Assembly (NCBI GenBank): GCA_028715415.1
Contig: JAQURX010000002.1
Coordinates: forward strand, 4,703 to 68,702
Direction of reading: 5' to 3'
Length of the DNA: 64,000 bases
DNA from: Candidatus Omnitrophota bacterium
GTDB taxonomy: Bacteria; Omnitrophota; Gorgyraeia; Gygaellales; Profunditerraquicolaceae
This document shows, piece after piece, positions 10,485-51,000 of the stretch; position 1 is the first letter of the stretch; every line of letters begins with the position of its first letter. The notes below the pieces were generated by a model, which was given only the letters and a program-made list of their open reading frames with translations, had not been told where the DNA came from and ran no database searches. A program made the position numbers and the translations under genes.

Positions 10485-10503
10485 GAATTTGGAGGGAAAA
10501 GTT

Positions 10504-10668: not shown

Positions 10669-10675
10669 GGTAAAT

Positions 10676-11044: not shown

Positions 11045-11045
11045 T

Positions 11046-12649: not shown

Positions 12650-12912
12650 AAAATATTATTAAGAATAACAAGGGGCAGAACACTCTGGAGATTACCCTTG
12701 TTTTAATAATTATGATTAGCCTTCTTTATGGAGTGATTAATGTCTGGCTTTGGGGTAACAAACAGATTGTAAAAAGGCAGATTTCGTATAATAATTCAAG
12801 GATACAGGCTGGAACAGCTAAAGATGTATATCTTGAGCCGGTGTGGTGGGATTATAGAGGTAAAGACGCTATAGAAAAATTAACGGAAAACCAAGTCTTA
12901 ATTGATAAATAA
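12625..12912 (+). CDS. Small TadE-like pseudopilin
   Basis: 95 aa NKGQNTLEITLVLIIMISLLYGVINVWLW. Overlaps the preceding gene by 25 nt. Confidence 0.5.
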   Translation: MGNSYWKIKNIIKNNKGQNTLEITLVLIIMISLLYGVINVWLWGNKQIVKRQISYNNSRIQAGTAKDVYLEPVWWDYRGKDAIEKLTENQVLIDK

Positions 12913-12923
12913 AAAGGAAAATA

Positions 12924-16009: not shown

Positions 16010-16481
16010 TTTTATAAACGCTCAATCATTTGTTGAGTATGCTGTGATTATTGCAGTAGTAGCTGCTGCAATTTTGGCAGGGAGGGCCTTTTTTGTTCGA
16101 GCCTTGCAGGCAAAATACCGCCAGAGCGCAGATACTTTTGGCCAAGGCGAACAGTATGATAAAAGAGCGACCAAAGACGTTTCTTTAGATACTCCGGGGT
16201 CAGATCTTGTCCCTACAATACTCCCTGAGCTTGTGCATGATTGTGATGTAATTAGAGAAAGAGTAACCGGCTTAGAAACATCAATTAGTAACCTTTATAG
16301 TCAGGCAGATAAATTGGAGCAGAGTGCTGCAAGTTTGGCAGTAAGCGCGGCATTGGTAGGCAGCGTAAGCGATATTTCAATTAAGCAGTATAAATCTGAA
16401 GCAACATCTTTAAGAGATGAAGCAGCAGATAAGCAACAGCAGGTAGATACCATTAGAGGCAAGTTTCCAGATTGTTTTTAG
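15993..16481 (+). CDS. Pilin-like protein with C-terminal coiled coil
   Basis: MRRRNSFINAQSFVEYAVIIAVVAAAILAG, then a heptad-like C-terminus. The start overlaps the stop of the previous gene. Confidence 0.6.
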   Translation: MRRRNSFINAQSFVEYAVIIAVVAAAILAGRAFFVRALQAKYRQSADTFGQGEQYDKRATKDVSLDTPGSDLVPTILPELVHDCDVIRERVTGLETSISNLYSQADKLEQSAASLAVSAALVGSVSDISIKQYKSEATSLRDEAADKQQQVDTIRGKFPDCF

Positions 16482-27000: not shown

Positions 27001-30000
27001 CAGAAAATACTTGGAGAAATGCAGAAGGCGGTAACGCAGATGCAAAGTGGACTGTGCATCATGAGTTAATAGAAGCAGCTGGCCGCGGTTCATTCGCAGA
27101 GGGGCCTTTGGCTCCATCTAAAGAAAAAGTTTCTGATGCGGTGCATTGGGAAGGTGAATTAGGTAAAGCGTATGAAGATAATGTAAAGAAAAATTGGCAG
27201 ATGCCGAGATTTGAAGAAGCAACTCCAATCTATTCTAGGGTTGCTACTCCAATGCAAAGAGCAATGGCTTTATTTAATAATATAGCAGGTAGAGCTCCGA
27301 CGCAGAAAGAAATGGTTACAATCATTAAGAACTCACCAATAAAAACAGACTTTATTGATGCAGCAAGGAATGTAGCTAAGGAAACTAAAGTTAAAATAGG
27401 TGACGAATTCTCTTTTGATAATGCTTGGGCAGGGAAATTGTTTAGGGTGAAAGCAAAAGCTACTGAAGGAGAAGGCTGGATCACAGAATATTATTCTGAA
27501 GGGGATAATGCATGGAAACATTTTGCGTTTAAGAAGTTTAGCAGCAGAGAAGTGGTGTTAGGGCAAGAAAAGTTAGCCGCTCAAAAGTCATTAACTGAAG
27601 TGCAACAGGCAAATTTAGATTTTGAAAGATTAACAGGGCACAATCCATCATACAACGAAACAAAGGCAATTGTCACAGAAGTGGTAAACAGGGGAGGAAG
27701 GACAACTTATAGAGATGTTGCTATGGAAAGAGCGGAAATCATAAAAGCCAATCAACGTCTACAGCCCACAGGCACCTTACCTATTATTAATGAAGGCCCT
27801 CTGCAGTTTGCCGAAGGAAGGTTTGGGTTTAATGAGGGAGATGCTAAAGTTGGTAAGGTAGAGGAAAAAGACTTAGCTACACGTGTTGCCGAAGCAACTG
27901 GTGGTAAAAAGATTGAGGAGTTAAATCTTAGAGAAAGAGTGTTTCTTGCTTGGAGCGATGTGCGTTCTTCTCTTCCAAAGGATCAAGCGCAGGCAGATTT
28001 ATTCTGGAGAATAGATTCTACTAATCAAGAGGTAGTATCAAGATTACAAAATAGAACTCCAGGAAAAGATGTCATTCCTCCTACATTTGAAATCCAAGGT
28101 GGTATGTCTTCAGGTAAAGATTCAGGTGCATTGGTATACGACAGTTTACGTCTAAGTGAATTAGGTGATCCAGCAATAGGTAGAGAGGTAGTACCATTAA
28201 GAACTCATTCACAAGCCCAAGAAACAGCAGCTGAGGTTAGAAGAATAATTACTCATCCTTTAATTGGGCTTAAAGAAGGAGACGTTGCAGTTGTTTCTGC
28301 GCACGATCCTAAATCAATAAAGGCTGCAGAAAAAGCACAATTTGTATTCTCTGCAAATGAGGATTTACAGCTTCTTTCTGCAACTCCAGAAGGAAGGAAA
28401 TCAATTGAATCTTTTATGGGGTCTAAAGATGCCCGTCGTCATTATTGGAATCCAGAGGCTGAAGATACTCCAGGCCTTATGGTAGGGACTAAGGCAGCTA
28501 GGAATCTCTCCGCTAAAGAAGGGAATGTCGGGGGCGAGACTCAAAATGTGCTAACCGAGAGACTGGGTTCAGAAACTGCAACAAGAAATGGTGAGAAAAT
28601 TATTTCAAAAGATACTGATCATATAGTGAGTTTAAATGAACCATTAATAGAATCTATTATGCCCGTTTTGAAAGCGGATAGCTTAGAGGAGGCAGTAAAA
28701 ACTGAAGATGGGGCTTTAAGAATGTCGGCAATGGCAGCGAATGCTAAAGCACGCCACGATAAACTTGGTGTTGATGTTGATAGGTTAGAAAATGGGCAGA
28801 CATCTCCGTTGGATGGTCTTTCTGGTGTTAGGCATAGGGTAAGGCCGCATGATCCAATGGATGCAGTTGCTCAAGCCCATATTACAAGAGCAAAAATGGG
28901 AGAGATAACAGGAGAGACTCCTGATTTGCCTGCTAATATTGAATCCCAAGCAGAAACTACCAAGGTTTTAGATGAACAAATGATAAGGATATTAAGGCCA
29001 AGCTCTGTTCGTTTTGCAACAGGCTCTCTTACTTCTGAGGCAGCAAAAAGAAATCAGGTGGTCTATGGTGCAGAATTGCCGCCAGGTGATAGTGTTGCTC
29101 CTTTAGATTTAGCCAGCCTTAAGGTAACCCAAGGGGAACATGATACCGGAGTTAAAAATTTTGAAACTATAATGCAAAAACTGGCTCAAGAAAAAGTCAG
29201 CGGGATTATAACTATTGCAGCTAGAGGAGAAGATTTGCCTGCTTTTGTAACACGAGCAACTGAATTAGCTAAGAATACACAGCAAAGAGTTATATTAGTT
29301 GATGCTGCCGGTGAAAGCAGTTTTGTCACAGGATCTAAAGAACGCATTGCAAGTGATAAAGATGTTAATACTCAGTTAGTTACTTCAGATAACATTGTAG
29401 TTATAGTAGCTCATGGATCTGCAAAGAGTAAGAGTTATTATTTTGGCCAGGATTCTGAAGGAAAACCTCTTGGTAGAGGTTTTGTTTTGGCTGATGGAAA
29501 AGCTTATGCAGAAATTGTCGCACAAGGCACCAAACGTCCAAGGACAGCAGCTACTCTTAATGAAAATGGCGAATTAGTGAAAGATTGGGGAAAACAGCAA
29601 GAGGTATCTGATACTGTTGAAGTTGTAGCTTATGGCCCTACGCGTGAAGGTGCTTCCACCCATCAGGAGAGTTGGTTGAGGAACCAGAGAGACGGAGAAT
29701 TAAGAGCTAATCATCGTAAAGTTATAGATAATTCAATTAGAATGCCGCATGATTCTTTGGAATATTTAGCTCAACTAGCTCCGGAAGCAAGTAAAGAAAT
29801 AGCTACAAGATTAGAGAGAAGAAGACAAGAAGATACGATTTACAAGAATACTGAATTACGAGGCGATGCTGAAAGTGGAGAAACTTCAGCTCTTAGGACA
29901 AGAGATAGGTCAAATATCTGGCTTAGGGAGCAGATGAAGAGTTTGGAATCTTTTGTTAGGGCGGATAATACACAAGCAAGGGATTTTATGAAAGAAATAC

Positions 30001-33000
30001 TCGGTGAAGAATTAAGCCGTGGTCCAGTGCCTTTAGGGTATGCACGTACTCCCGCTGAATTGATTGAAGCTTTAAAAAGATTTGATTCTGCTGATTATCC
30101 AGCTCGCACTCCTCACTACGTAGAAGCAGGTGTTGCTTCAGCTGATGCTGCTGCAGGAGCAAGAAAAGATTTAGGGTTAAAAGGACATGAACCTATAATA
30201 GCAGAAAGATTATTAGCAGTTAGAGGCATTGCTCCAGCAAATGCTCAATGGTTGAAGGATAATGGCTATGCTGATCCTCAAAGCGGCGTTTTATATATTG
30301 ATTCACAATTCTTACCTATAATTAATCAGTTAGTTAATTCTACACAAGCTACAAGACAGGCGTTAAATAGTGGTTTATCCACTCTTAATATTACAGCTGC
30401 TACTTTGCCTGATTCGGAAACTGTTTCAAACCAGCAGGCCTTTGATACACTAAAATCAATTATTGATAACGTTGTGCCGGCAGCTAATACAAGGCAAGGT
30501 TTTAATTCTCTCATGACTTTAGGCCAGCTCGTTAAACCTTTTGAGAGTACTGGCGATAGCGTCTCGATTACTCCTGGAGCATTCAAGAAAGCCCAGCAGA
30601 GCTCGGATTATTTAGCAATTGTAGATTTGGTTTTAAACCTGGTAAGAGCGAGCCATCCTGAAAAAGCAAAAGCCATAGATAACTTGCTTAATGATAAAGT
30701 TAGAAGCGCATATAAGAAAATGCAGATGGCAAGAACTGATGCAGAACGCAAAGCCGCTGCCAAAGCTTTAACTAAAGCTTTGCCTACCCGTACTGCTATT
30801 TATGATGCAATGACGCCTTTTGGCACAGCTGGCACAACTGATGATGAGTGGAAAGCTCCGGAAAAACTTCGTTCAATGGAATTCGTGCCTTTCTTAATTC
30901 CTATGTCTCCAGAAGAAACACGCAATTTAATTGCTGTTGATGATGCCTTATTAGAAGATGATTTGCTCCCAGCATCAGTAGCTACAAAGGTTCCTTTAAT
31001 TGATACAGTAGCTGTTGCCCAAGGCCAGATGAATTTCTCGGGTTTGATTTCCAGATGGGGCGGCAGAAGCGAAGTAGCTAAAGCTGCCAGAATGCTTAGT
31101 AATTTAGAGAATGCTTCCGCAAGGTTATCCGCAGCTAGGAGAATACTTAGCAAACAGGCGCAATCCGGAGAACAACCAGATAAGAAATTACAAAGCGCAT
31201 TAAAGAGTTTATCAAAGCAGATTAAGAGATTGCAAAGATTAGGGCTTGATCCTACTCAATATACCAGTAATGATAATCTAACTGTAATTGCACAAAGAAT
31301 TGTTGGCGAGGATAAGGCTAAAACAGATAAATTAATGGAAAAATTAATTCTTCTTTCTATGGCAGGAAGAAGAGATTTGCTTGAGAAGCAGGTTAATAAA
31401 CATAAAGAATCTTTGGATCCGGCTATCGCAGCGTTGAATGCATTAATTGAGGAAGAAAGGCCGATTGCTGAAGGCGGAGAGAATTTAACAAAGAAAGCCG
31501 AAGAAGTCCGCCAGCAAAGAGAACAGAGGCGTCAACAGCAGATTGCTCAGGTTGAAGAAGATGCAGCTAAAGCAGCCCAAGAGGGAAAAACAGTAGAACC
31601 AACCGAAATCCCAGAAACAGATAGCGTTGAAACGATTGCTGCAGAATTACAAAGCCGCGCTAAAATAACAATTGATTTAGCTAAAGAAAAGTTGGCTAAA
31701 CTTGAAAAAGAAAAGGCTGATGCTGCTGCAGTAACTAATGAAACTCCTCTTGCACAGCAATATGCTGCTACAGAAGCTTATCTTCCTGAAGCATTAGAGT
31801 TGTCCATTAGAAGCGAAGCTTACCAGAAATTTGCTAAAGATAAAGCTGCTGAAGAAAATCAGCCTGCAACAACTGAATTCTCCGCAGAAGACGTGGCTAA
31901 TCGCCTTAACGAAATTTCGAATCAAGATTCCGGCGAACATATGAATCTTATGGCGAAGAAATATACTTATAACACCATCACTCCTGACGAAGATGTCCGA
32001 TTGAATGAAATTGAGAAGAATCGTAGGCAGCAGGCAGAGAGTTTACTCCAGGGCCTTAGTATTGAACAATTGGAAGCAGTTGTAAGGCTTAATGTTGAGC
32101 AGGATGAACGTTTAAATAATGGAGAAAAGCCAGCTTCGTTATTTGGTAATGGAGCTCCAGATTATGCCGCGCAAGAGTTAATAAGGAAATTAAAAGCTAG
32201 GGATGAAGCCAAGTCCGATGCACAATCGAAACAAGGTAATCAACCAGTGGCTCAAGAGCCAAGTAATCAAAGCTTCTTTAAGCGCGCATTGTATTATAAA
32301 GTCACCCTGCCTTTATCAGAAAAATTATTGGGCTCCCCGGTAAGCGTGCATTGGAGTGTTGCTGCTTTAGTAGCGTTCTTGGGGATTAAATTTGGAGGTG
32401 TTACAGCTGGTTTGGCGGCTGCAACGCCTATTATGATTTCAGTATTCTTACATGAAGCTGGGCATGCATGGGCTGCATTTAAGAAAGGAATGAAAACCGA
32501 TAATATTACTCTATTTGGTTTTGGTGGATCAACTAATTTTGATAAAGATAGATATGAAGCTATGTCTCAGAAAGATAAGAAATTTGTCGCTTTAGCTGGC
32601 CCGGCGATGAATTTTGTTTTGGCTGGTGGAGCAGCTATGTTGAATGCTTTAGGCGTTATTGATTCACATTCGGCAAATTATTTTGCTAACATGAATTTAT
32701 TCTTAGGGGCATTTAACTTGATTCCTTTCTGGCGGATGGATGGGGCAATTATATTCAGAAATATTGGTAGAGCTACTAGTAATGCCTTTACACCGCTTGG
32801 CTTGATGATTTATGCTGCTGGGAAGCTTATGTTTGGTAATGGCGGATTAGACAATGCAGGTGTTTCTGGCGCTGGGCAGAATAGTAATGGTGGCGCTAAA
32901 GAAAAGCCTGAACAACAGCCGATGGGTCAACCTCTGCCTTTCACAAATATTCCAACACCAAATGTTAATAATTTGAAGGTTCCTGCAAGTAATGGCTTAA

Positions 33001-36000
33001 TTCAACATTTACATAGCATATTTGGTTTGTTTGGACAGGCGTTATCATTCGCAAGGCCAGCTTATGCCGGAGAAACCAGCTCCCAGCATCTCACTAAGGT
33101 AGCTGGTGCAGGCGTATTTGGCCGTAGCAGCCCGGGTGTCAACTCCGCGGCTGCGATTAGCCCAATCGCAGGTCGTGGTTCTAGGCAAGAGGGCAAAAAT
33201 AGTGCAGGTTCAGTAACTCTTGCTACTACGGAGACTGGATCTGAAACAAGAAATGAAGTAGTAGGTGCAGAAAGTGCCGAAGGAAAGGTAGATGCCCAGA
33301 GTGCAACTAGAAAAACTCAAGGCGCAAATACAGGTTCTAATGATAGAACCGGTGGTTCGACAAGTGCAACCTTAAATGGCACAAATTCTGGTAACGGCAG
33401 CGGTGCAAATAATGGTGCAGCAGGCTTAGGTGGAAAATTAATATTAATTCCTCCAATGGTATGGAGGCTTTTGCGTCTTCTTAATACAATTATTCCTCCA
33501 CAAATCCTCGGCAATAACCATAATGCCCGTGGTCCGCCCGCCAAACTTGGCGCATTAGTAAAAACTTTATCAACTGCTGTATTAATCCTCGCTTCAATCT
33601 GTGGTTGTGCTTCAAATCAAAATCAATATAATCAATCTTCCTCTATCCAAGTTGTTGGCATTATCGCTGCCGTATTAATTATCGCATTACCAATAGTAAT
33701 TAAATTATTAACCAAGCCGGTTTCTGTTCCTTCCGTGGCAGGAAAGACAGTCCCGGCTTTTGTTGTAAATGAGGGCTTCGCAGGAACCCTCCTCCAGGGA
33801 TTGACCCTTCTTGTTGGAGCCCTCATTACAACTGTTTCAAAAATTATAGGAGGTGTAAAATGGTTAAAATCAATTTATCAGAGCTTAGTTTCGACCATCT
33901 TGTCATCTTTGAGAAAGACAGTACAATCTTTGCAGCAGCCCGGTGCGTTGATAAGAATCTTAGGATCTTTCTTATCCATGATAAAACAGGCAACGCATAC
34001 ACCCGTAACGGCAGAGCAGACAGCTGGGAAGAACTCTGTGATACCGACAGAGATATCGTCCTCCAGCGAATTATCGCAGCCCGAAAAACCAATGCAATCC
34101 CAGTCTACAGAATCAACGGAAGACACGATAGCTGATGAAGATGTGCCGTATGTTGTTTACAGAAGAAGATTTGGAATTGTTAATCCTTATCTTTTAGAAG
34201 GTGGATTAAAGGACGATGATTTTAGAGTTGTTTCTGGTGATAGAAGATATAAGCTAGGTCAATTAATTCCCGGGTTTTCTAAGCCAACTCCTGAGGATTG
34301 GGATGAAGCAGATGCATATTTCGCACAAGAAGCTGAGAAAGAAAATCAGGCTGCAGGCGTAATTGCGGGATTACCATTAAGAAGAATGGCTAAAGCCGCC
34401 GGCTTCGTTGTATTAGTAGGCGGTGCGCTTTACGCTGGTGCTGCCCTGTTTGACGGCACACCAGTTTATGCAGCAGATAATCATGCTTCAACCATGAATG
34501 CTCCAAGATTGGATTTGGGAGAAATGTTGAATAATGATGGGAATATCTTTGGGCAGACAACAACTTCTCAGGCCGCACAATTGACAGAAGCAGTAATTGA
34601 GAATGGTAAAGCAGTGCAGATTGTCGATGGAAGCCATCGTATGATATTAGGCGTTCCTGCATTAAACTGGCAGAATTATTCTGATTATCAGGCCTTTAAG
34701 AATGCTGTTAGGAAGAATGTTGAAAGCCAGATCGAATCTTTAAACTTATATACTAAGAAGAATTATTCAATTGATAATCTTAAACAGTACAACGGTTTAA
34801 TTACGAAATATTTAGAAGGTGCATATTGGGCGTTTGATGCAAGAAATAGAAAAGTAACTACAACTTCTTCAACTGCTACGGCAACAGCTACTGCGTCAGT
34901 AACCACGACTAGCAACTTATCTACAACGACTTCTAGCAATGTAGCTACATCTAACGTAACTACTACCACAACAACAGATTCTGCTCCAGCTTTAACTGAA
35001 CAGCCATTTATTTTAGTTGAAGACATCGAAAAGGTTAACTTTGGAAGGCCGTTGTTTGTTGGCCCAGTTGATTCTGTGATTATTACTACTGTTGATGGCG
35101 CACATTTTGTAATTGATGACGCAGAATTCTTAGCTAACCAGTTCGGCTTAAAGACCGGCAAGATTACAAAGATGGAATTTGGCCGTGCAAAGAAGATAGA
35201 AGTTATAGGCGTAGATGGCGAAGTAAAAGTACTTGGTATCAAAGGCATAATAGAAGAAGCAAGAGCACAGCAAGCAAATAAAACTTATCAGTCAAACACC
35301 AATCCTCGTTTTAATATTGATTTAGTTAGAAATGCTCACGAAAAAGGCCTGACAAGAGGTTTACGCGAAGTTCTTACTCTCGGTATTGTTAAGGGCCCGC
35401 GCGCTACCGGATTATATCAGCTTGATTTAAATGGCCGCCAGGTATTTGTATATTATGGTGGAAGCAATGGCCAGGATTTACTCAATGCATTAAATGATTT
35501 TGGTGTCCCAGATGAAAATATTCTTATGGATTCAGCTAAAGAGGAAAAAGTAAAATCATGGGGAATGGCTGCAGGGCGTACTTACGCAGTTGATGTCAGA
35601 CTTCCTGATGGAGAAGTTGTAACAGCTACTTATGATAATGCTTTAGAGATTGCACATCTTTTTAAAGATGCTAAACAGGCAGCCAAAATCAAGCCTGTTA
35701 AACCAGTTCCTGTTACTTCAATAACAACTACTAATACAACAGACATCGGTACTCCTTTTACTCAATCAATGCCGAGCTCTAAGCCGGTTGATACTTTACC
35801 GACAACAACAAGTTTACCTGTAGTAAATCCAGAACCAACAACAACTACAAAGGCAGTGTTACCTCCTGTTACAACAACTAAGCCAGTTGTGCCGACTACA
35901 CAGGCTGCTCCTAAAGCAAAAGTTACTCCAGTAATACCGACAGTAACTACTCCACTACATACCCGCGCTCCTCCGTATGTGGCTCTCGCTGCTCTTTTCT

Positions 36001-39000
36001 TTGCTCTCGCCGCTGGATTATTATCCAAAAATCGCAATTGGGAAATAAAGAATCGTATTAACGATATCCTTAAGAAAGTATTCCCCGAATCCCGCTGGTT
36101 AGCTCCTGCCGTTGAAGGTATCAAAGGTGTTAGAGGTTTAATCAATAGTGCCAAAAATGCATGGTACAACTGGACTTCAAATCATAGTGACTTACGTAAT
36201 ACCATTTTTATTACCGGAGCAGGATTAGTTATTCTCGGTATTGTAGTGGATGGTTCAGTATTTGGTTTTGATTATCATTATAATTGGAACAAAATAACTG
36301 ATGTCTTAAGATTTACATTTACCGGGATTGCGATAGGCTTTGGTTATTTAGCAATAATCGCTGCACTGTTATGGAGAGTTAAGCAAGGCATCCAACCAAT
36401 ACCAGAGGATGACAAATTTGCTCGTATTACAGGCGGCGATCCGGTAGATTTATTAGTTAATGCATATGGATATGGAGAAGAAGAGAGCAATTCAAGCATG
36501 CTTGAGACTGCAGCTAAGTTTTTGCGCAAGAGAGGTTCAGCTGCGCTTTTAGCTGGTATTATGTCTGACAGTGATTATCCGTTAGATTCATATGCAGAAA
36601 TAGTTGGATACTTGAATAGGCAGTCAAGAAGTTGGATAAGAGAGCTAAGTGAAATGGATCGTCAAATTGGGGTTCCAATGCATAGGGATTGCAGAGTTGT
36701 GGTTGGTATACCAGTTGCTGGCCACCAGGAAGGGGATAATATTTATCGTACGTTACAAAGCTATACTCATCAAACTGATAGGTCAGGTAAGGCATTAAAT
36801 AATAATTATTTTGAAATAATTGTATTCATAAATCATCCTTCTGATGTTGCTCCGGATAATACAATTGACGAAGTCCGAAGATTCCAGGCTGATTATCCGC
36901 ATATAAATGTAAGAATGGTCTATAAAAAATTAGATCGTTCAAATATTACGATGGGTAGAATTAGAAAATATGCAACTGACTTGGCGTTGTTAAGACATAA
37001 AAATAGGCACAACAATAGTGATTTGATAATTATTGGAAATGATGCTGATTTAAATGGTTTAGCTCCTACTTATATTTGGGCATTTATTAATGGATTTGAT
37101 ACTCATAGCAATTGGGATGGTATTTTGGGTAAATTAGATTGGGGCTATGATGGGTATTTATCTTCACCTGTATTTCATTTTGGTACTAGGATTTTCCAAT
37201 TGCAGGAGATTATATGTAGGCGTAACTGGGGAACTCCGGGTAGTAGTGGGGCTAACTTTGGTTATAGAGCTAGCCGATATGCTGCTTTGGGAGGTTACAA
37301 CGATAGGATGAAGTGGGGTGAAGATTCAGAATTTGGCTTAAGATTAAGAATGGCAAGAGATAAGAGAGCATTCAAAGCCATCGACCATCCTACTTCAGCT
37401 AATGTTGGTTATGTAGGAAATGCAGCCCTACTATTTACTAACGCAAGAAGAGGGATAGATGCTGTTATTAAAGGAAAAGCTCCTATAGAACAGTGGGATA
37501 GATTTGGTCCTGATGATGCTTTAAGAAAACAGCGCTGGGCAAGGGATCAGAATGATGCATTTAGTGTGGTTTTAAGTCCGGAAGAATTAAGGGACTTATT
37601 AGATAATCCAGCTTATTTGGAAAGATTAAAGAAGGATTTGGAAAGAGTTTTAAATAGAACTTTCATGGGTAGATATGATATTTATGTAGAGCAGGTTCTT
37701 AGGTTGTTGGGGGTACAGCACATTTTATCTACTGATCCCGATGGCAAAAGATGGATAATCTTAACCGATATTACCAAGGCAGTTAAAGGGTTTAAGAGAT
37801 TTCAAGAAACAGCTTCTTCAATATTCGCTGGCAAGACAGGGGCAAAGAAAATAGTCACAAATACTGTTAAGCAGTCAGCTCCTGTAGAGCAACCTGTTTC
37901 TCATGAAGAAAATACAGATGCTCTGCGCACCCAAGCTGAAGAAGCATTGAAGGCAAATGAAGAAATTCTGGCGAGAATTCGCGCGGCATTGGATAGCTTA
38001 GCCAAATCGGAAAATGAATTAGAGCAAATGTTGAATAGGTTGCAAGAGGCACAGCAAGCTGAGCTAACTATAAAGGAAGAATCTACTGTTGAAGCTGCCA
38101 AGCCGGTAGAAGTTGAAGTAATGTCAGTAACTACTGAATCTATTGAAGAAGAGAAGGAGAGATTATTTGGAAAACTAAGGGATATCGGATTTGAGGATTT
38201 TAAGAAATTGAATAAAGCTATATTTGATGCAGCAAGAAATGCAGAGCCTGAAAAAGCACAAGAAGCAATTATAGAAGCTTTAAGGAGAATAGTTAAAGAA
38301 GCAATTGCAGCTTGGCAAAATGCGCAAGCTGCTGTTGAAGTTGTCAAACCGGTAGAAGTTGGAGTAATACCAGCAGCTCCTAAGGCCATAGAAGATGAAG
38401 GTGTGATTGATGTTGAATTTACACCAGTTGAAGATAGCGTAAATAATCAAGTTGAGGATAGCAGAGATCCAGCTGAAAGAGCAATTGAAGATTTATTTGC
38501 CCACAAAGAATTCTTGGAAAATGCGTTAGAAGCTCCTTCATTGCGTCTTAGAAACGGCGCTGCTAAAGAGGCAAGGGAATCATTAGAAGCTGCTTTGGAA
38601 GATGTTAATGCAAAAATAGCACAATTGGAAAAAGAAGCAGATGCAGAAGTTGAGCCAGCAGAAAGTGAAGTAATCCCAGCAACTCCTGAAGCCGCGAAGA
38701 AGGAAGGTGTGATTGATGTTGAAGCGCAACCCGTAACTACTAAAGATGATCCATATGCGTTAACTCAAGAGGAATTAAATACATTAATAGAGGAATTGGG
38801 AGAAGAGCTTGACCCTGTAACTCCTCCAGCAGTAGATAATAATGTTGTTGATGCTGAACCGGCAACTGCTGACCCGATTGTAGCGACTTACCGATTCTTG
38901 AAGCCCAATGATGCTTACGATACAGAAGTTTATGACCAATTAAAAGCATTGGGAGCGCCCATAGATATGTATATAGGTAATGCTGAACCTGGGCAGATAA

Positions 39001-42000
39001 TAGAATTAAAGAAAGGATGGCTATTTAAAATAGGCCTTGATTCTCAGCTTAGAAGAGCGATTTTAATGGTATATCAGACCAGCGCTGCAATAGTAAATGA
39101 GCCAAAAGTAGAGCAGTCTGTAGTAGAAGCTCCTAAGGCGGAAGCAAAGCAAGGCTGGTTAAAGAGAGCTGGAGCTCGAGTGCTCGGAAGATCCTATTCT
39201 ATTATTCCTTTGGGTGCATTATTCCCTCTCGCTAATAATACTTCAACTCCCGTAGTTAACGATGCTTGGGTTATGGTTGTTTTACTTGTTATCGCCGCAA
39301 TATTATTGCCGGTTGCTTTTGCAGATATGGCAGATATGAGGGTAAATTCTTCAACTGTTACTAAGATTAGCCCTGTTGTTGGAGCATTCTTAAATCGCGA
39401 GAAAGAAAAGAACTCAGCAAAAGAAGAAGGGGCTCGCGAAGATACAGTAGAAATTTCTGAAGAAGCACGCAGAGCTGCAGCGCAGAAAGTAGCCAAGATA
39501 TTTACTGGATATGGTTTTGTTGGCACAAGAGATGGTGGGATTGATGTCGTAGCTTTAGGATTAATTTGGTGTGCTTGTGTTGGCATATTTGATGACAAAA
39601 ATAACAAATTCGTCGTGGCACATCTTGGAATGGATAATGATGTTGCTGCCTCTATAGATTTATTACTTGCTAAGTTAGGGAATGCAAATATTAAAGAGCT
39701 TAGATTTGAGGTAATTTCTTCAAAAGAAGGGGATATCTTAAAGAATGAAATTATGCGCGAGCTTGGTAGAAGAGGAATTGTGTTATCTCAGGTTGCTGAA
39801 TCTAGGGTTGAGCAAATGTCTGCTAACGCTTATTTGAATGCAAATAGCGCTAGTATGGATGTACGTAAGAGCGAAAACTTAACCTTTGATTTAATAGCTT
39901 CTCAAGATAAGGTTGGCCAAGGGCAATTCGAGTTGCCGCTAAAGAATTCTTCTTTAAGTAAATCTTTATTTGATTTTGGTGCTATTGTTGCTGGTTTAAT
40001 GACTCAATCAGCATTCGGCGCTAGCACAAGTATTCTTGCAAATGCAGGTGACGCAATAAATTCAATCATGACTTATCTTCAATATGCATTAATCGCTTTA
40101 ATTATTTATGGCATATATTCAATTATGCAGAAAAGATTTGTTGCCGGAATTTATAGTATTGTATTATCAGCTGCGATGTTTGGCATAATGGCAATGCCGC
40201 AAGTTAGCCCTGAATTAGCTTTAGCTGTATTTGCTATTTCCGGGCTGGGTGGATTAGGCGCAAAATTATATTTTAGAAGAGCAAGTGCTCGTGATATTAA
40301 TTTTGGTAAATTGCTTTTGACTTCATCTTTATTGACTGCAATTCTTGGTATGGTTGCAGAGGCAAGAGGCAACACAACTCAGATCCAGTCTTCAGCAACG
40401 ACTGTTAATTCGTTAGTATTAGGGGCTGTAAATAAAGTTAAAACTCCTGTAAGAGCTGCAAATAATGTTAAACCTCAAAAAGCCGGTAAATCAGCGCTCA
40501 AAGCACGCAGCCCACCAGTAATTAATTATAAATCTTTTGAATTGAATGAACTTACCAGAGTAATTGTCGGTGAAAATATTTTCGAAATCCTCAAAGCCTC
40601 CAATAAAGCACAAAGAGAAAGAATAATCGCTTCAATTGTCTGGATTGTTATTAACAGAGCAAAAGACGGTGATTTTGGCGGTAACACTATTTGGAAAGTT
40701 CTAACTTATTCAAATGCTTTCAGCTGCAGATATGATAGAAACAGTAATTATTATACCTATTATAATGATGTTGATAACAAAGAAGAAATTGCTCGTATTA
40801 AAGCCGCTGTTCAGGCTGTCTTGACAGGTAAAATCGCCAATCCAATCGGTAAGGCCACTCATTATTATAATCCGAATAAATCGAATCCTTATTGGGGTAT
40901 AAACGCCAAGACAATAGCTTGGGTTGGCCCGCACAGATTCGTAAATGTGAACAACAAAGAACTTCCTACCGCTAGCCAGAAAATAGCAAGCACAACTAAA
41001 TATTATGGCAAAAAAGCTATTAATGCAGCTTCAAAAGCAGCTTTAAGAGCTTTAAAGAATGCTTTTTCAACAAAAGGTGTTAAACATAGAGATGTTGGAA
41101 CTGGCCTTGTTCTCGTAGGTGTAGTTGGCACAGAAGCTTTTGCAGGCATACTATTAGCTGTAGTAGCTTTACTGGTTATTAAATTAGCACTTAATAGAAT
41201 TGATATAAGAAAAGCTTTGATTGCTGTAACTTTGCCAGCGATGTTCTTCTATGCAGATGTAAAAGATACTGTTGCCAAGTTTATGGATAGTGAAAAATTA
41301 GTTTGTTCCCACTGTAGTAAATTACCTCCGGGAGGAATCAGCCCTAAGCTTGCTGCTCAAATTGATGTATTAGAAGCTCGCCTGAAAGAATTCTTCCAGA
41401 ATAAGAAAGAAATAAAGATTATACCAACATCCGTCTATAGATGCCCTGCATACAATAAGCAAGTTGGCGGTGCGAAGAATTCGCAACATGTAGACGGAAT
41501 CGCTGCTGATTTTCAGGTATTTGTTGATGGAAAGCAAATGCCGGCTATACTTGTGAGGCATTTTATCGACCAATTTAATCTTGGATTTACAGGTAATGGC
41601 ACATATCATGTCAGAAAAATTGTTAATGGAAAAGTGACCTATGTTGATTGGAATCATGGGGATGTAAGAGAAGGTGCTAAGGCCGAATGGAAAGATATCG
41701 ACTCTGGATCTACTAACCAGAAAAATACCAAAGTAACTAAGTATACTCATCACCGTCATGGCCGCGCAAGAGGGTGTTCAATGTTAGGTTCATTCTTCTT
41801 TGGCGCGCTTTATTATCGTGATGACGGGAAATTACTGCTCCATCAAGGACTGATTATTAGAAAAGCATTTGTTGCCACATATGGAATGTTCTGGGGTAAT
41901 ATTTATGCGTTGACCAGTCCGATTATCAGCCAGACTGTATTAAGTTATGATATGGAAGCTGATGCGGCGTTTGGTTATCTTGAAAAAAGAGCAGAATACA

Positions 42001-45000
42001 AAAGATTTGTTGATGCTATTTTAAAACATGAGCATGTCCACTTAACAAGTACTTCTGAAAGAGTTGCGTATAGAGTTAACTTAATCGCATTACAGAGAGC
42101 AAAAATTAATTCATTTGAGGACTTAGTTGAATATTTGGCTCCAAAAGTAGAAATTGCAGAAAGGGGATTTGATCCTAGAGATGAAGAGAAAACTATTGAT
42201 ATTGTTGCTGATAAAAAACCCGCGGTTAATATCTCTGTAGTGGTTGTTAGGCCGGAATCAGGACATTACTTAGATGTTAAGCCTTGGCAATTAAATAGCT
42301 TTATTGTCGGTGCACTCGTTGCCTTCTTCGGCTTAGGCGAGGTAGTGGCTAATGCTGCTACAACTGCTGTTCAGGATCCAACCAATAGCGATTTACTTGG
42401 CCTTCTTGCAGTTGCCTTTGTATTATTCATTAGCCCTATAACAGCTATATTAGCAGGATTTACAAAGGCTTCTGAACGTAACGGTACTGTGATACATGAA
42501 TCAAGAGAAGATGTAGGTCTTCCTAGCGAAGCATATATCATCATCTACGCCTTAACCTTGATATCCAGCATGATCTTGCCTGAATTACGTGTAATAACCA
42601 GCTTCGCAGGCCTACTTGGTATAGCAGTATTTTCCTTAAAAAGAGGCGTTATTAATGACATAAAGAAATATAAAGAAGAGTTGATGGTGCTTGCAGTGAT
42701 GGTCATAGTTATCCTTGGTATTGTAAAGATGATGAATAGCATGCCAATAGCAGGGCAAAGCAGTATTTCTTTAGGAGTTGTATTGCCGCTTGCTATTCTT
42801 GCGGTATTAGCTTTAAGTAATCTTAATTTCTCCGCAACAGCGGTTAGGGCTAGGCCAACAGTGGCCCAGGATAAGAATTTAAGAAAAGCAATTAGATTAA
42901 TAGATATAAAACTTAAGAAAATTAATGGAGCAAGGCCGGCTGTCGTAATTATTGATGGCGCTTCTGGGGTTGGTAAAACTGTTTTTGGAAAGAGACTCGC
43001 AGCGCAGTATAAAGGCTCCAGGCTTATAGACGTCGATGATTATGTCCGAGAAATGCATCCAGATGGTGATAGCATTGAAATGGTTGATTATTGGCAAATC
43101 AAGAATGAAATTGAGAATTCGGATAATAGTCTTGTGATAGTTTCTGGGTTAAATGCTTTGTATAATTTAAGCAGTATTAATGTTGATGTTACAATAAAGC
43201 TGAAAGCAGATGAAGAAACAAGAGAGGCTCGGCTTCTTAAGAAAGCCAAAGAATTAAGTTTGACTGAAGAAGAGTTGAATGATAGAAGAGATTCATTCTC
43301 TCTTTCCGGTGATAATAAGTTTGATTTAGTGATTGATGTTAGCGCGCAGAAACAAAAGAATTCAAGAAGCACATCTTTAGCTACCGCAGTTGTGTATTTA
43401 GTTGCAGGTTTAACCGCCTTCTTTGGCTTAGGCGAAACTATTGTTAATGCAGCGACAAGCGGAATTGTTGCGCAAAACAGTATTTTTGTTAACGCTATCC
43501 CGGTAATCTTAATAATTTTAGTTATATTGGCTGGGGCATATATCATTAATCCTAAAGTTAGAGATGGTATTGATAACACGTTAGCGCAGATTAAGGATTG
43601 GATAGTAGCAAATAAATTCGTAGTTAAAATTTTCTCAGGTATTGTAGTAGGAATTTCGCTAATCTTATTTACTTTTAACCATTTCGCTTCTTTAAGGAAT
43701 AAAGAGTGGAATGAGTCTAAGAGCAATAAGAACTTAGTTGAAATCAAGAATGCTTTTGAAAATAAGAATAGCGAAGCGCTTGATGGAATTATTAAAGATG
43801 CAACTGCGCGCGGCAATAGAATGCAGGAACGCCTCAAGAAAGCTGAAGTAAGCAAGGCCAAGAAAGTAGAGGATGCTACTAACGACCCAGTTAAGCTCGC
43901 AAAACGTTATCTTGCTTATGACCGTATGGTTGCTAATTTGGCTGAATTATTCAAGAACCAGATTACAGATAAATCTTCAAGCCGCATTGGAGCAATAACT
44001 CCTAATGCTTGGAAAAAAGAACTGAATGATTTAGAGCAGGATGCTATTAAAACCGAATTTGAAGGTTATTTATTCGCTGCATTAAAAGCTCTTCATAACG
44101 AAATCCTCGCCCAACAATTTAAAGCAAAGCAATCTGAAGAAACCATCAATGGATATAAATCTGCGGCACCTTTCTTATTTAAGAAAAATATGGGAGATGT
44201 AATTAATCAGGCAATCGCAGCATTAGAGCAATTTAAGAAAGAAATTGCTGTAGAAGAATCTCAATACAATTCCAAAACCGCAGCAATGAGACAGCGCGTA
44301 AGCGATAAGCTTTATAAACAAGATAATGCATTTAAGGCCCATCGCGATAGAAGAGATGACTTAGGAAAATTATTAAACAGCAAGATTGTGCCTATGGTGG
44401 AAATTGCAAAAGAAATTGACAGTAACCTTGAAGGAGTGATTTCGGCTAGAAATAAAGAAACAGAAATGAATGCTTTGGCTGAGGCTAATAAGGACGTTGC
44501 AGAAGAAGAGGTGGAAAGAAATTCAAAAGGCGAAATAGTCCGTCGTTATACAGTATATAGAGATTATAGCGGTCCTTATAGAGCAGCTGCAGCCGTCGCA
44601 GCTTCGGATGCGCAAAGCCACGCCCGTAAGGCAAATGAGGGAGCAGAAAAGCTAAAGAAGCAATTATTAGAGTTAAAGAATGATAAAATTTTTGTTTCTG
44701 AAGAACTTGGTTCCATGCTAATTGGTGGAATAAATGTTAAGCTTGGCCAAGGCCATGGTATTTTCTCAGATTTGTTCTTGCCGCCAGTGTTAAATATATT
44801 TACTGGAGTTAGTTCTTCTTCATCTGCATCAAGCGCTCGCGTAGAATTTGCTCCGTTACTAGCTTCTTTGAAAAATGTTCAAAATATTGTTCAAGGTAGG
44901 CTTGATGTTGAGAAAAAATGGATTAATGCTCAAATCGACGCAGAGCTCAATCGGCAGATTTTACAGGTTAAACCAGAAAAGGAATCTCTTCAGCCAGAAA

Positions 45001-48000
45001 GAGCTCCAAAATATTCTTCGAAAAAACTAAACAAAGTATCAACTAAACAAGAAAAACCATTCTGGGCTGCTTTGAATGAGAAGGCTCAGCGCAATAGACG
45101 CTTTGTAACACTCGGCGCCCTCAACGTCTTCTTCGGTGCTGAGACGATTGTTAATGCAGCACAAACTGCCACTACTCAGCCAGCTCAACAGCCTTCTATT
45201 TTAGCCGCAGTTATAGTAGCAATTATCGCATTAGCCGCGGTTGGATATTTAAATCACTCAATGAATAAGTTTGGAGGTTCCGAATCACAGAAGAATGTTA
45301 AAGGCGATGCAGAAAGTATTGATTTAATTGATATGTACGGTATTAGCTTATTGCCTTTAGCACTGCCTCTATTAATGGGGGCAGCTCCAGCAGCCACCTC
45401 TGCTGCACAGACATCTGCTCAGTTAAATGATGGGTTTGCTATTTTAGGACTCTCCTTCATTATTCCAGTAAGCATTGTATGTGCAATAGCAGGAGGAATC
45501 CTAAATGCTGTTGAACGTAATGGTAGCTTAAATGAATCAAGAGATGACGCTGGAATCCCCAGCATATTCTTAATAGCTATCTATGTATTAACTTTAGTAT
45601 CCAGCATAATATTACCCGAAGCCAGATTAATAACCAGTTTTGCCGGATTGATAGGAGTAGCTGCCTACTTATTAGCAAGAGGTATCATTAAAGAAACCAA
45701 AGCTTTAGCAATATCCGTTGCAACTAAAATCTATTCTGGCATCAAATTATCTAGTAGGGCATCGTTAGTATTATTGGTGTTAGCTTTACCTATATTAATG
45801 GGTGCAGCTAGCGTAGATTTAGATAGTATCGATCCTTTTGTTATAATTCTTCCTCTTTCTTTAATAATAGTAGGAGCTGTTGTTATTTCTATTGTATCGC
45901 GTTACAACCGAAATTTAGCGAAGTCAGGTTATGATTTAGAAGCTCTTAGTAAAATGACAGATACAGAAAAAGCAATGCTTGTCCCGCAGCTTATCGAAGA
46001 TGTCCAGCAACAAAGAAGTGAATGGGAAAAAGCGGTTATTATCTTGGGATTAATAGGTGACAAGATGGCAAGTAGGCCTTTAGTTAGGCTTTTAAATGAT
46101 CAGATAACTCGCTACTTGGCGTCCTTAGCTGCTAAAGATGGTATGAATAGTAATATAGAAACTTGGTATAAAGAATGCATAAGCGCGATATTAAAATCAT
46201 TAGAACAGATAGGGGATATATCAATTGCTGCGAATTTGATTCTTATGTCTTATCGTATACCAAAAACAGTCAGAAGAGTAGATGTAGCAGCTAATAGCAT
46301 CAGTTTAAATGTTACCTCAGAGTATGCTCCGAACGAAATATATAATATGTTTAGTAGTACCATTAGCAAAATGTCTAGCAGTTCTTCGCTAGCTGTCTCT
46401 TTTGCAAATTCAGTTGCATATGGCTTATTGTTTATTGGGAGAAATGGTACGTATCTGATTAAACAGGCTTTTAGGGTTGCCCAGGCTTTTATAAAAGAAT
46501 ATGGGATATTGAACGGTTTACTGAAAGCATTAAAAGCACCCATTGCTACACCATATAATTATGATATTGCTTTTAGGAATTTACCTAATAAATATCAAGA
46601 TGCAATAAATATGCATGAATGGGCACATGAAAGAGGATATAACGAATATGTCGCTTACAAAGCACAGGTAAGATTTATGAGAAAAGAAAATAAAAATTCT
46701 TCTCTTCGTCAGGCAAGAGCAGTTCTTTCTGCAATTAGAAAGCCTTACGAGGATTTAATAAATACTGTAAATGAGCAAATAGAAAAACAATCATATTTGG
46801 AAGGATCTCTTTCAAAGAAAGCAAGAACAATAATTAATTATAGGATAGAAAGCCTCAAGAAAATATTAAGCGATATGAAAGAAGATAAAATTGGCTTAAG
46901 AGGCGCTCTAAGTAGCGTCCCCGTTAAACTTCGCGATAGTATTTCATCAGAAGTAAATCTTACTGAAGAAATATTGACGGAAATGATTAACAAAGAAGTT
47001 GCAAGATTAGAGAATCTAAATAATTTACGAATTAATAACCGGATAATGCCTGCTGAGAATAAAATAGACGCTTTAGCGAAGAATGGCCCTACGATATCAG
47101 AATGGTTGGTTTATACTGTATTCAACAACTATTATCGTTGGCTCAGAGAATATGTAGCTCACAATAATTCTATGCCATCTTTGAATGTGAGATTAAATAA
47201 GTTTATTGGGGTAGGGAAAGGTTTAAATTTTAAGGAGAGTTTATTAGGGGAGTATCTATTAAAGACTATTCAGGCGTTAGTTGAGGAGAATAAAGAGATT
47301 AAAGATGTAGAGATAATTGCTTATTTAAACGAAATGTTAGATTCTAAGACGTATAAACAACTTATATCTTTGGTTATCGGTGAAGATGAAAAATTAACCG
47401 AAGAGATTATTGCTAATCAGCGTGAAAACGCAATTAACGTGGCACTAAGCGATATAAGAGTAAGGCGCGTTTTGCGTGAGAGAGTAGCCATAGTTAATGA
47501 TTATGCGGCGGATTTAGGTTTGTTCGGTAGACTCGTTCGTGCGGTAAAGCGTTTTGTGGCAAAATTAAGCGGTGAAATCAAATCGTTAGAAATGATGGAA
47601 AGAGATATTGCTACTCGTGTAAAGGAAGCGGTTCTAGCTATAAGAAAGAATGCAAATGAATTAAGGCAAAATAGCAGTAATCTCTATGATTCTTTTGCTG
47701 CGTTAATTGAAAATGATGAAGATGCAGTTATTTCAGGTGGAGTTAGAATGGGTTGGTTGAAGTTCGCTCCGGCTACCGTTGGTGTTTTAGGCTTAGTTGC
47801 GGTTTGTGGGATACTCTGTGGTGGATGTGCCGCTGGTTCAAATCTATCCTCCGGTTTTATGACAACAATAGATAATTCAACTATGGATTATCCTGATGTT
47901 TCAATGGATGGTAACAATCAATTATCCTCACAGAATTTATCTGTTGGAGCTTATCCTTATTTTGCACCTGTAGTAAAAGCTTTGAATGCTGTAATGCTTG

Positions 48001-51000
48001 GGCAGGTGGAGAAGGATGATGATTTACATGTTAAAATTTATACTGGTGATTGGTGTGGGATGTGCCATGCAGCGAAGGATTTCTTTGATAAACAAAGTAT
48101 CCCTTATGAAGAATATAATATAACCAATAATAAAGCTAATGCAGAAGAGGCCAAAGCAAAGTCTGGGCAAGATGCTATACCGGTTATTGATATTAATGGT
48201 ACAGTTATTGTAGGCCTTGAGCGTGAGAAGATTTTAGCGGCAATTGCGCAGGCAAAGCAGGAATTAGAAGCAAAGCGTGCAGCTGAAGCAGCAGCGAAAA
48301 CTGTTAAAGAAACTCCTGTTGTAGAAGAAGTAAAAGCAAAAGAACCTGTTGAACCAAAAGAAAAAGCAATACCGCCAGCCCCAGCCTTAATGGAAACAAC
48401 CAAAGTTAAATCTATTTCTCAATATGGCATTACTTGGACATTTGATAAAGAAGTTGAGGCATTCCAGTTTGTAGACGGAAGCTGGGGAGTTAAAGGGCCG
48501 GTAACAGTTGTTAGTATTAATCCTATGCCGTCTGATGGAAGCAATGGTTCAATGGTTAATCCTATGCCTGGAACAGAGCAGGCATATGATTCACGTATTG
48601 CTGGTTACAACAGCGCGTTGTCAATACAACCTCCATTTACACTTGAACCAAATGAATCTTTAGTTTCTACGATTAGCACTGATAATGGACAGCAGACTAA
48701 TTATAGAGGATATACTGGAGCAAGGTCTTTATTAAAAACCGCCGCAGTATTAACTTCTTTGGAGAATGTCCCTGCTAAAGGCGCATTTCGTCCTCCTTAT
48801 ATTGGCAATGAAAAGCCTGTATTTAATACTAATAAACTACGCACAGAACTTCTGCCTTCATTAAAACCTGTAGGAAATGTTCCGGAATTGTCAACTTTTG
48901 AGCGTGATTTCCAGAGAGTTTGGATTGATCATATGACAGGATGGCAAAGCCGCTTTATGCATCCTTTGGAAAATATGGAAGATTACGGTGCGCGTATCGC
49001 AGGCGTTGTTGGTGAAGCAGGATTATTGCTTTCAATGGATTATCCTCTTAAAGAAAAACAAACATTGCTTAATGGAGTTGTCCAAACCGGAATTGATTTG
49101 TATGGAGTTGCAAAATTACATAAATCAATTTGGGAGCCTGATGGCGGCCATGGCCCGGGACGCAAATGGTTAATTACTTTTGCCGGATACATGCTTAATG
49201 AAAAAGATTTTTATATGAATGATTATTTAAGCGAAGATAATAATACCTATTATGGTGATGAGCAGAATCAGCTTTGGACTGGCTGGCAGAATTCTGGCAA
49301 TCCTTATGCAGCGAATGTAATGTGGAGAATGAGGGTTGATCCTGATAAATTCAATTATGAACATATAATACCTGAGAATTGGGATAAAGCACCTTTCCCC
49401 ATTAACGGGCAATACCCATATAACAAATTCCGCGCTTATCAAGGTTTATGGTCTAAGGCTGTGGTAGCAGAGGCACTTGCTGCACGGCTAATTGGTTTTA
49501 AGGATAAATGGAATCACGATGCTTTCTTTGATTATGTTGACCGCTGGGTTTATGAAGATGATGTAATGGTAAGGAAAGCGATTCAAAATGCCGCTATTTC
49601 TAATGATTGGTCTGATCCGCAAGGCCGCGATCCAAAAGATATTAATTATTACGCTCCTTATTTTGGCCAGACTGCCTCAGAGCCTTGGGTAATGGATATG
49701 TATAAAGAGTATCGTTCTTCTCATCCAGCAACAATTGAAACCGTAGCAACAAAACCTGCGAAGAGTTTAGCAAGCAAAGTAATAAAAACGGCAAAAAATC
49801 TTAAATATGAATTAGGCCTTACTAAGAAGAATGCCGCAAAATTGGCGTTAACAGTTGCTAATTTAATTCCTCAAACTCCGGCAACGTCAATGCCAACAAG
49901 TAGAGACAATGTTAATTTCCCCGCTGCAAGAATAGTAACGCTTAATCCAGCAGATGCAACCGTAGATAATTATGGCCTTGGTTTATTTGATGAAAATGGA
50001 AATATTAATTTAAATAGAATAATGATGTTCCCTGAAACAAAAGATTATTTGAAGTTTAGCGGCCTGGCTCCTCCAGTATCTAGCCATCCAGCAACCCAAA
50101 CACAGATTAAAGATTTATTAGGCGAGATTGCGCAAATCGTAGCACAAAAAGATCAAACATTGGCTGCACAGTTACGCAAAGCCAATGTAGTTATTTCTGA
50201 TAAAACACAAGGTGTTGTATTTGTTAAGGAAGGCGTTTATATTGCAAAGGATATAATTGATAATCCTCAGGAACTCATCCGTTCAATCATTCATGAAACA
50301 GGCGCAGCATTAGGAAAGTCAGATACAGAGAATCAAAAACTCGAACAGGCCTATGCAGAATGGAAAGGGAAGCAGAAAGTTTCAACTAAGCCTGTTGTTG
50401 CCCCCACCACCAAAGAATCTGTGTCTAAGCCGGCTAATAATAAAGAAGCTACTGACGATAAGTATAAGAAAATATTAACCGCTTTTAAGTCCGCAGGAAA
50501 GTTAGACATCGCAGCTAAAAGAATATGTTGTGTACAGTTGGGTATGTATGTAGAAAAAGAGCCGATGCCAGATCAGGTAATCAAGGTTCTTGTAGAGGCA
50601 GCTACGGCAAATAAAGAAAATGTATTTTATATACCGGTCCGTCAAGCGGCAGCAATGGAATTAGCAAGCCAGGTTAGAAAATACGGATTACCGGAAAGCG
50701 CAATAAGGGATTTATCCAGGGCTTTTGTTTCAGAAAAATCCCCGGAAATGTATGATCCTATTACTGTCATATTTAGTATGTATTCAGAAAAGCAAAGATT
50801 ACCAGAAGATGTCTTATTGTCCCTTGTTTCTAAATTAAATAAAGAATATAAAGATATTAATGCGCAAACCAATATAATCCCAGCATTATTAACCCATACT
50901 CAAAGACACGGCCTTCCAGAAAAAGTATTCTCTGTTTTTATCAATATATTAGGTTATGACAATATCGATGAATTTCAGCGTTGGTATGTTACTGAAGCTG

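Follow-up and report, generated by a model that had tools for sequence, protein, structure and literature searches.

Two predicted peptidoglycan hydrolase domains, of SleB and M15 type, inside a giant membrane protein of a Candidatus Omnitrophota bacterium

What would a giant membrane protein do with two enzymes that cut the bacterial cell wall? The question is raised by a 64,000-nucleotide (nt) stretch of Candidatus Omnitrophota DNA (GenBank assembly GCA_028715415.1, contig JAQURX010000002.1, positions 4,703 to 68,702, forward strand; the whole stretch is termed the window). A first-pass annotation, made from its letters, had placed a SleB/CwlJ-like domain and an M15A-type peptidase at nt 40540-41690 in a giant open reading frame (ORF), each flanked by transmembrane-rich segments, and had suggested that the two activities, displayed on a giant envelope protein, serve to attack or remodel peptidoglycan, possibly that of another cell. 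We find that both domains are, by sequence and by structural model, genuine members of peptidoglycan-cleaving families whose predicted catalytic residues are conserved, and that their host is a further giant membrane protein of the Omnitrophota type; these wall-degrading families we did not find reported for that class in the searchable text, and their pairing is common in lysins. As to their use, the reading we favour, at slightly less than even chances, is a membrane-anchored cutter of both glycan and peptide that works near the producer's own inner membrane, with the producer's own sacculus as the likeliest substrate.

Two wall-cutting domains in one reading frame

The host frame, on the + strand, continues without a stop for 15,308 codons (nt 18075-63998) and runs past the 3' end of the window; its probable start is the ATG at 18078, and its size, at least 15,308 codons or 45.9 kb, is a lower bound set by the window's end. 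It is missing from the program-made ORF list because it runs off that end. The whole translation was scanned against Pfam, and both domains gave significant matches in the stop-free frame, with scores above the curated cut-offs: Hydrolase_2 (PF07486) at nt 40638-40940 (47.4 bits, cut-off 27; E-value 3.2e-12) and Peptidase_M15_3 (PF08291) at nt 41358-41531 (39.3 bits, cut-off 23.2; E 7.9e-10). The folded parts of the corresponding AlphaFold2 models bear out the range first given for the pair (Table 1). Each domain was aligned and modelled separately; in a joint alignment MAFFT stacked SleB-only sequences on the M15 region.

Table 1. Coordinates of the two domains, their membrane setting and other features of the locus
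Feature	Residues (aa)	Position (nt)	Strand	Basis
SleB/CwlJ-type (Hydrolase_2) lytic-transglycosylase-like domain, predicted	7487-7638	40533..40988	+	Pfam, profile, AlphaFold2, Foldseek
M15A-type LAS zinc-peptidase domain, predicted	7739-7876	41289..41702	+	Pfam, profile, AlphaFold2
M15 zinc-ligand/catalytic residues, predicted	His7805; Asp7812; His7861; Asp7863	41487-41489; 41508-41510; 41655-41657; 41661-41663	+	
Four candidate membrane helices upstream of the SleB-like domain	7334-7430	40074..40364	+	hydropathy
Lys/Pro/Ala/Asn-rich tether, ~57 residues		40365..40532	+	sequence
Strong 30-residue hydrophobic segment between the domains	7677-7706	41103..41192	+	mean Kyte-Doolittle 2.36
Weak hydrophobic stretch, doubtful membrane helix	7713-7727	41211..41255	+	summed dG
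HExxH block directly after the M15 domain, motif H7985-E-H-V-H	7900-8026	41772..42152	+	self-BLAST
Six candidate membrane helices, then P-loop NTPase-like domain	8076-8250	42300..42824	+	hydropathy, loop charges
Giant ORF, partial, host of both wall-cutting domains		18078..63998	+	stop-free frame
N-terminal Peptidase_C39	190-273	18642..18893	+	Pfam PF03412, E 1.5e-11
Tad/Flp pilus cluster with secretin, immediately ahead of the giant ORF		49..16481	+	Pfam domains, synteny
Small ORFs with QST(L/A)EY N-termini		7535-7723, 7707-8108, 8178-8495, 15993-16481	+	sequence

For the SleB-like domain, an alignment of the window sequence with 27 small homologues (alignment A2; 28 sequences) shows Glu7500 (column Glu31), Arg7528 and Trp7607 to be invariant and Asn7527, Tyr7597, Pro7605, His7620 and Phe7622 nearly so. 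Glu7500 (nt 40572-40574) is the predicted catalytic residue; it lies inside the motif GENIFE, in which the pattern G-E-x3-E is kept and after which comes a 9-residue insertion found otherwise only in two large proteins, P0003 and P0026, described below. With the A2 profile the SleB chains are matched at E 2.7e-24 (4F55) and 1.5e-23 (4FET), and the Glu7500 column falls on the first Glu of the SleB sequence YGESRGE. By counting, the aligned Glu stands at positions 26 (4F55) and 120 (4FET) of the deposited chains, in agreement with what we take to be Glu157 and Glu151 in the numbering of the original structure papers. Structure prediction agrees: the model (predicted local distance difference test score, pLDDT, 86.2; predicted TM-score, pTM, 0.81; the first ~17 modelled residues non-helical and of lower pLDDT) matched only SleB structures in Foldseek, the top three being 4FET_A, 4FET_B and 4F55 with probability 1.00 and target TM-scores of 0.79-0.81. 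The domain also matches a PHROG endolysin family, phrog_938. The catalytic Glu is essential in SleB and in a SleB-like toxin of a type VI secretion system (PMC12331253, PMC11148199).

The fold and the Glu in G-E-x3-E are thus those of SleB of Bacillus cereus and B. anthracis (4F55, 4FET), from which the window domain differs in being only ~20% identical, in its 9-residue insertion and in lacking the N-terminal PG_binding_1 domain: Pfam gives no match to PG_binding_1, and a low-complexity tether lies upstream instead. The score against the SleB-specific model is also weak (TIGR02869 spore_SleB, 24.6 bits; cut-off 236.5). The window domain is therefore a member of the Hydrolase_2 family, not a SleB orthologue; and since the host is not a spore former, muramic-lactam cortex is not its substrate.

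The M15 domain carries the LAS signature H-x6-D...H(-x-D). In an alignment of 35 M15 sequences Arg7789, Asn7794, Gly7799, Ser7803, His7805, Asp7812 and His7861 are invariant and Asp7863 nearly so, the first zinc ligands lying in the string YRCPAYNKQVGGAKNSQHVDGIAAD (aa 7788-7812, nt 41436-41510); ~10 residues are inserted before the third ligand, the last His. Both the M15 triad and the SleB-type Glu, whose conservation the first-pass annotation had left to be verified, are accordingly intact in the alignments. The profile matches the zinc D-Ala-D-Ala carboxypeptidase of Streptomyces albus G (1LBU; MEROPS M15A) at E 2.9e-14, and fold searches with the AlphaFold2 model (pLDDT 89.2) return the LAS fold. 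Compared with 1LBU, the window domain is 19-22% identical, has the ~10-residue insertion, lacks the N-terminal wall-binding domain and is membrane-tethered. It matches a PHROG endolysin family, and the only hint as to which bond it cuts is a weak match to MepK (14.4 bits; cut-off 185). Antisense to the M15 domain, on the minus strand, lies a 129-codon ATG ORF (nt 41370-41759); Pfam at E <= 1 gives it no credible family match (best E 0.16), and the coding strand most likely accounts for it.

Because Pfam scores above curated thresholds, profile matches to solved chains and fold searches all agree, the domain matches are far beyond chance. Relatives are nevertheless distant. An exhaustive HMMER search with the 431-residue module against 1.84 billion cluster representatives returned 344 proteins at E <= 1e-3 but only three at E <= 1e-10, and the best full-domain matches do not exceed 36-39% identity. 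A word-indexed protein search with the module gave no match at E <= 1e-3, nor any piece of the module's own sequence, a scan of species-representative genomes found no relatives of the module, and an alignment of three sequences of the giant-type SleB variant found no match in the Joint Genome Institute (JGI) metagenomes; a profile search of a large protein collection returned only small canonical cell-wall hydrolases, none of them giant. Single-sequence searches of the PDB were marginal (E about 0.3-0.7), profiles being required for clear matches. The module is thus divergent yet clearly belongs to both families.

Membrane topology and the reach of the module

The surroundings are as rich in membrane segments as had been described: four precede the SleB-like domain, one lies between the domains and six follow (Table 1). 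Candidate segments were scored on a summed biological hydrophobicity scale (dG; values of Hessa et al., used without position weighting). Between the domains only aa 7688-7706 score as a membrane helix (-1.75); the weak stretch beyond it (aa 7711-7727) gives +5.8 in a 17-residue and +8.7 in a 19-residue window, worse than all the other candidate helices, which reach at most +4.5. With only one scoring helix between them, the SleB-like and M15 domains may therefore face opposite sides of the membrane; it is the insertion or otherwise of the weak stretch that decides which side the M15 domain faces.

Charges in the short loops bear on both placements. In the upstream four-helix cluster the Lys plus Arg (K+R) counts alternate 2, 0, 4, so that the chain should exit outside after the fourth helix and the SleB-like domain should lie outside the cytoplasm; in P0003 and P0026, too, the loop ahead of the final helix that precedes the SleB domain is K/R-rich. 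In the downstream six-helix cluster the counts are 0, 3, 1, 5, 0, and the segment that comes next, ahead of the P-loop domain, is rich in K/R; with six helices this would put the M15/HExxH region in the cytoplasm, consistent with a single inter-domain helix. From hydropathy and the loop-charge rules we set the chance that the two domains lie on opposite sides at a little over one half. Of the display of two activities on a giant envelope protein, then, the domain identities and the membrane-rich giant host stand, whereas their joint display, with one scoring helix between them, does not follow.

The SleB fold begins at aa 7487, 57 residues past the end of the preceding helix (7430), and 38 residues lie between its end, at aa 7638, and the helix that follows (7677). 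Such tethers would allow a reach of roughly 15-20 nm at most. A secretin is encoded upstream, and the producer therefore has an outer membrane; anchored at both ends on short tethers, the domain should reach the cell's own wall but, unless released by proteolysis, not pass beyond that outer membrane. That the target is another cell, as had been suggested, is thus not established.

Relatives, and what the module may cut

Proteins with both Hydrolase_2 and M15_3 make up at least seven of the 150 best representatives by phmmer; six of these are borne out by Pfam for both domains, as is an eighth, P0150, which escaped phmmer, while in P0040 Pfam finds the M15 domain only, the SleB partner being seen by phmmer only. 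Two-domain lysins and spike proteins of phages or injection devices are represented, examples being the 'cell wall hydrolase' of Synechocystis sp. FACHB-383 (WP_190598164.1; P0001, with PG_binding_1) and the metagenomic P0031 and P0119; one protein of the set has PG_binding_1 and SH3_3, and two have the puncturing domains Phage_base_V or Gp5_OB. What these lysins and spike proteins share with the window is the same two catalytic families in one polypeptide, at 36% identity among the best matches; they differ in being soluble and equipped with wall-binding or puncturing domains, whereas the window domains lie between membrane helices. Pfam finds no PG_binding, SH3 or OB-fold partner beside the latter, and the module does not correspond to a soluble bifunctional lysin. 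Joining exactly these two families, one cutting glycan and the other peptide, is an established lysin design; it is the membrane-embedded setting that is unusual.

Closer in setting are P0003 (2,807 aa) and P0026 (3,128 aa; MDP8298582.1), large membrane proteins in which a helix cluster precedes the same SleB variant. Neither has an M15 domain beside it, so the pairing is not a fixed feature of such proteins. P0026, which combines a Glu/Leu/Phe/Val dehydrogenase, an M50-like motif and Hydrolase_2, is encoded between a 10,442-residue ORF and one of at least 3,157 residues, all on one strand of an 86-kb contig of a metagenome-assembled genome (MAG) (locus L082; GCA_030765685.1, JAVCCB010000015.1, 57093-86299), which looks like a giant-gene region split into several very large ORFs. 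When the whole giant protein was compared by tblastn with all the retrieved loci, the SleB match in L082 was the only one. In another relative, P0006 (2,094 aa), an M15 domain lies between hydrophobic segments.

The giant proteins of Omnitrophota (the 'Archaeovorin' or multi-enzyme class) offer the best general likeness: ORFs of tens of kilobases, a C39 domain, many helices, a patchwork of unrelated enzymes and hardly any sequence relatives, with a cluster of RcpC, secretin, ATPase and GspF-like genes and small pilin-like genes upstream. They have been described as having an N-terminal C39, many membrane helices and little sequence conservation (10.1101/2023.11.21.568195), as lying behind a conserved gspD/gspE/gspF/rcpC cluster that includes genes with class III signal peptides, and as proposed to bind and degrade prey cell walls, being "implicated in cell wall degradation"; among their rarer components is a lytic transglycosylase domain of SLT type (West-Roberts et al. 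2023, 10.1101/2023.11.21.568195). The present locus matches this published type in its C39, helices and upstream pilus/secretion cluster, as predicted from sequence. Of the length criteria in use for giant genes, >20 kb (Seymour et al., PMC10066038) and >90 kb (West-Roberts et al., 10.1101/2023.11.21.568195), its ORF exceeds the lower; the higher is beyond what the window shows. The difference is in the wall cutters, SleB/Hydrolase_2 and M15_3, which are specific for bacterial peptidoglycan rather than an archaeal envelope, and thus point to a bacterial wall, the cell's own or a partner's. Neither family is mentioned in the searchable text of 10.1101/2023.11.21.568195, PMC10066038 and 10.64898/2026.06.07.730766 or in one 2026-preprint supplementary file. 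Omnitrophota themselves make ordinary peptidoglycan (10.64898/2026.06.07.730766).

In the reading we favour, two short tethers would keep the SleB-like domain at the periplasmic side of the producer's inner membrane, where it would cut glycan strands lying no more than about 15-20 nm away. Its substrate would most likely be the cell's own sacculus, opened where the giant protein and the Tad machine next to it have to get through the wall; alternatively, it could be wall material brought into the periplasmic space. The M15 domain would act on the peptide part of the same polymer or its fragments, cutting stem peptides that contain D-Ala, or cross-links, with a division of labour like that of two-domain phage lysins. 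Short tethers and a periplasmic SleB-like domain favour wall material near the producer's membrane over long-range attack.

Several points weigh against this. The activity, substrate and localisation of the module are predicted, from residues and models. The topology was derived from hydropathy and the positive-inside rule only, and in published work on the class TMHMM and DeepTMHMM disagree on Omnitrophota giant proteins. That the M15 and SleB-like domains share one face is putative, with a single solid helix between them, and the downstream loop charges fit a cytoplasmic M15 domain better than a periplasmic one. The same pair occurs on phage baseplate-spike proteins, which attack walls from outside, and E. 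coli is killed by a type VI effector of SleB-like type (PMC11148199), so that an offensive role is quite possible. The C39, M50 and HExxH protease-like parts of the giant protein could release the module.

Such a role, with the module turned on the peptidoglycan of an attached host or prey bacterium after proteolytic release or at a contact site where the envelopes have merged, is a strong alternative, though we think it less likely than the reading we favour. It agrees with the prey-wall degradation proposed in the literature for giant proteins and with their higher abundance in attached cells; with the Phage_base_V and Gp5_OB spike proteins, which breach walls by means of the same pair; and with the position of the gene beside a Tad pilus cluster, Bdellovibrio-like predators attaching by Tad pili. 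The type VI effector, T6EC3, also shows a SleB fold serving outside sporulation against Gram-negative walls, its toxicity to E. coli depending on the catalytic Glu (PMC11148199); it is, however, a secreted toxin with an immunity protein, and neither an immunity-like partner nor a secretion signal was identified in the window. The protease-like parts that might free the module are likewise present, yet no release signal was found, and the tethers that fix the SleB-like domain at either end are too short for it to pass the producer's own outer membrane. Moreover, the only cultured relative preys on archaea, which have no peptidoglycan.

The topology itself suggests another possibility, which we think unlikely: that the SleB-like domain is periplasmic and the M15 domain cytoplasmic, so that wall breakdown outside is coupled to salvage inside. 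By analogy with VanX and VanY, the M15 domain might then cleave D-Ala-D-Ala, wall precursors or imported muropeptides, a suggestion to which we give the same low weight, and the module would be an in-line salvage or feeding conveyor within the giant protein, not a surface weapon. One scoring inter-domain helix (-1.75 against +5.8 to +8.7 for the second stretch) is what this arrangement calls for, and over aa 7300-8300 the K+R tally in short loops is 10 inside to 1 outside, as against 7 to 3 for the alternative topology; the second HExxH copy follows a K/R-rich exit from a membrane cluster, and many other domains in proteins of this class need cytoplasmic cofactors (the P-loop and glutaredoxin here, the Glu dehydrogenase in P0026). 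But 1LBU and phage endolysins, the closest relatives of the M15 domain in structure and sequence, work outside the cytoplasm; a marginal helix can be inserted when its neighbours assist; and topology calls on giant proteins are known to be unreliable. Finally, that catalysis has been lost and the domains serve only as wall-binding or scaffold modules, or that the matches arose by chance, is very improbable: both domains are divergent, with identities no higher than those given above, and both carry insertions close to the active site (near the SleB-type Glu and before the third zinc ligand), but every catalytic and near-invariant family residue is kept, the confident models match enzyme folds and both Pfam scores lie above curated cut-offs.

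The module overturns no current view and would not surprise a specialist. The proposed role of giant Omnitrophota proteins in wall degradation has so far rested on few recognisable domains, most of their length being unannotated; here the module offers two small fragments of about 150 residues each with named catalytic residues, and the question of same face or opposite face could calibrate membrane-topology predictions for the whole giant-protein class.

The rest of the giant gene and its surroundings

By Kyte-Doolittle hydropathy the giant protein has 48 hydrophobic peaks, and 17 by the stricter summed-dG criterion. Composition shows no GC anomaly at 40-42 kb, where the module lies, that would hint at recent insertion. 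Besides the C39 domain, Pfam finds a Peptidase_M50 domain of site-2-protease type amid hydrophobic segments (aa 4783-4902, nt 32421-32780), a glutaredoxin domain and a glycoside hydrolase GH2 TIM barrel. The M50 domain, together with the N-terminal C39, could cut the giant protein within or near the membrane. The P-loop NTPase-like region (aa 8284-8398, nt 42924-43268) has weak AAA_18, AAA_33 and Zeta_toxin matches, all below Pfam gathering scores. No SecA_DEAD-like domain was found by Pfam among the 15,308 residues available, and nothing credible at E <= 1 in aa 7100-7330 and 9280-9900.

The HExxH block that directly follows the M15 domain recurs at aa 9440-9570 (nt 46392-46784), the two copies being 27% identical (E 2e-8) and bearing the motifs KHEHVH and MHEWAH, respectively. 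It has no Pfam match, even at E <= 1, and may be an unrecognised metalloprotease-like module. A membrane-helix block is also duplicated, at 50-54% identity (nt 42390-42665 and 45429-45701; aa 8106-8197 and 9119-9209), and its order relative to the HExxH block is reversed from one copy to the other. Further on, nt 47772-48209 (aa ~9900-10045) encode a hydrophobic, Cys-rich, lipobox-like segment, LVAVCGILCGGCAAGS, and then a glutaredoxin-like domain bearing the motif CGMC; between this region and the second HExxH block lies one hydrophobic segment.

The Tad cluster comprises genes for RcpC/CpaB, a secretin with TonB_C, a fusion of ParA-like (TadZ) and T2SSE (TadA) domains, two T2SSF proteins and a TadG-like protein. 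Its four small ORFs begin with K(K/G)(A/Q)QST(L/A)EY followed by a hydrophobic stretch, and in this their products resemble Flp/TadE-type pilins with class III signal peptides. In a collection of 185,579 species, one genome per species, the best full-length matches of TadZ-TadA are in two Candidatus Omnitrophota MAGs (58% and 52% identity), and the exact protein is encoded also on a short assembly contig of run SRR22315506. RcpC and the secretin-TonB_C protein are syntenic in an Omnitrophota MAG, at 39% and 49% identity; the nearest Omnitrophota contig (L002) was compared over its first 14.5 kb, which end before any giant gene. Between the cluster and the giant gene, a 332-residue ORF (nt 17080-18078), rich in Gly, Ala, Ser and Asn and with an N-terminal hydrophobic segment, ends exactly at the giant ORF's start. 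Both of the fusions in the cluster, that of the secretin with a C-terminal TonB_C (nt 941-2602) and that of ParA/TadZ-like with the TadA/CpaF (T2SSE) ATPase (nt 2606-4759), are present also in L002.

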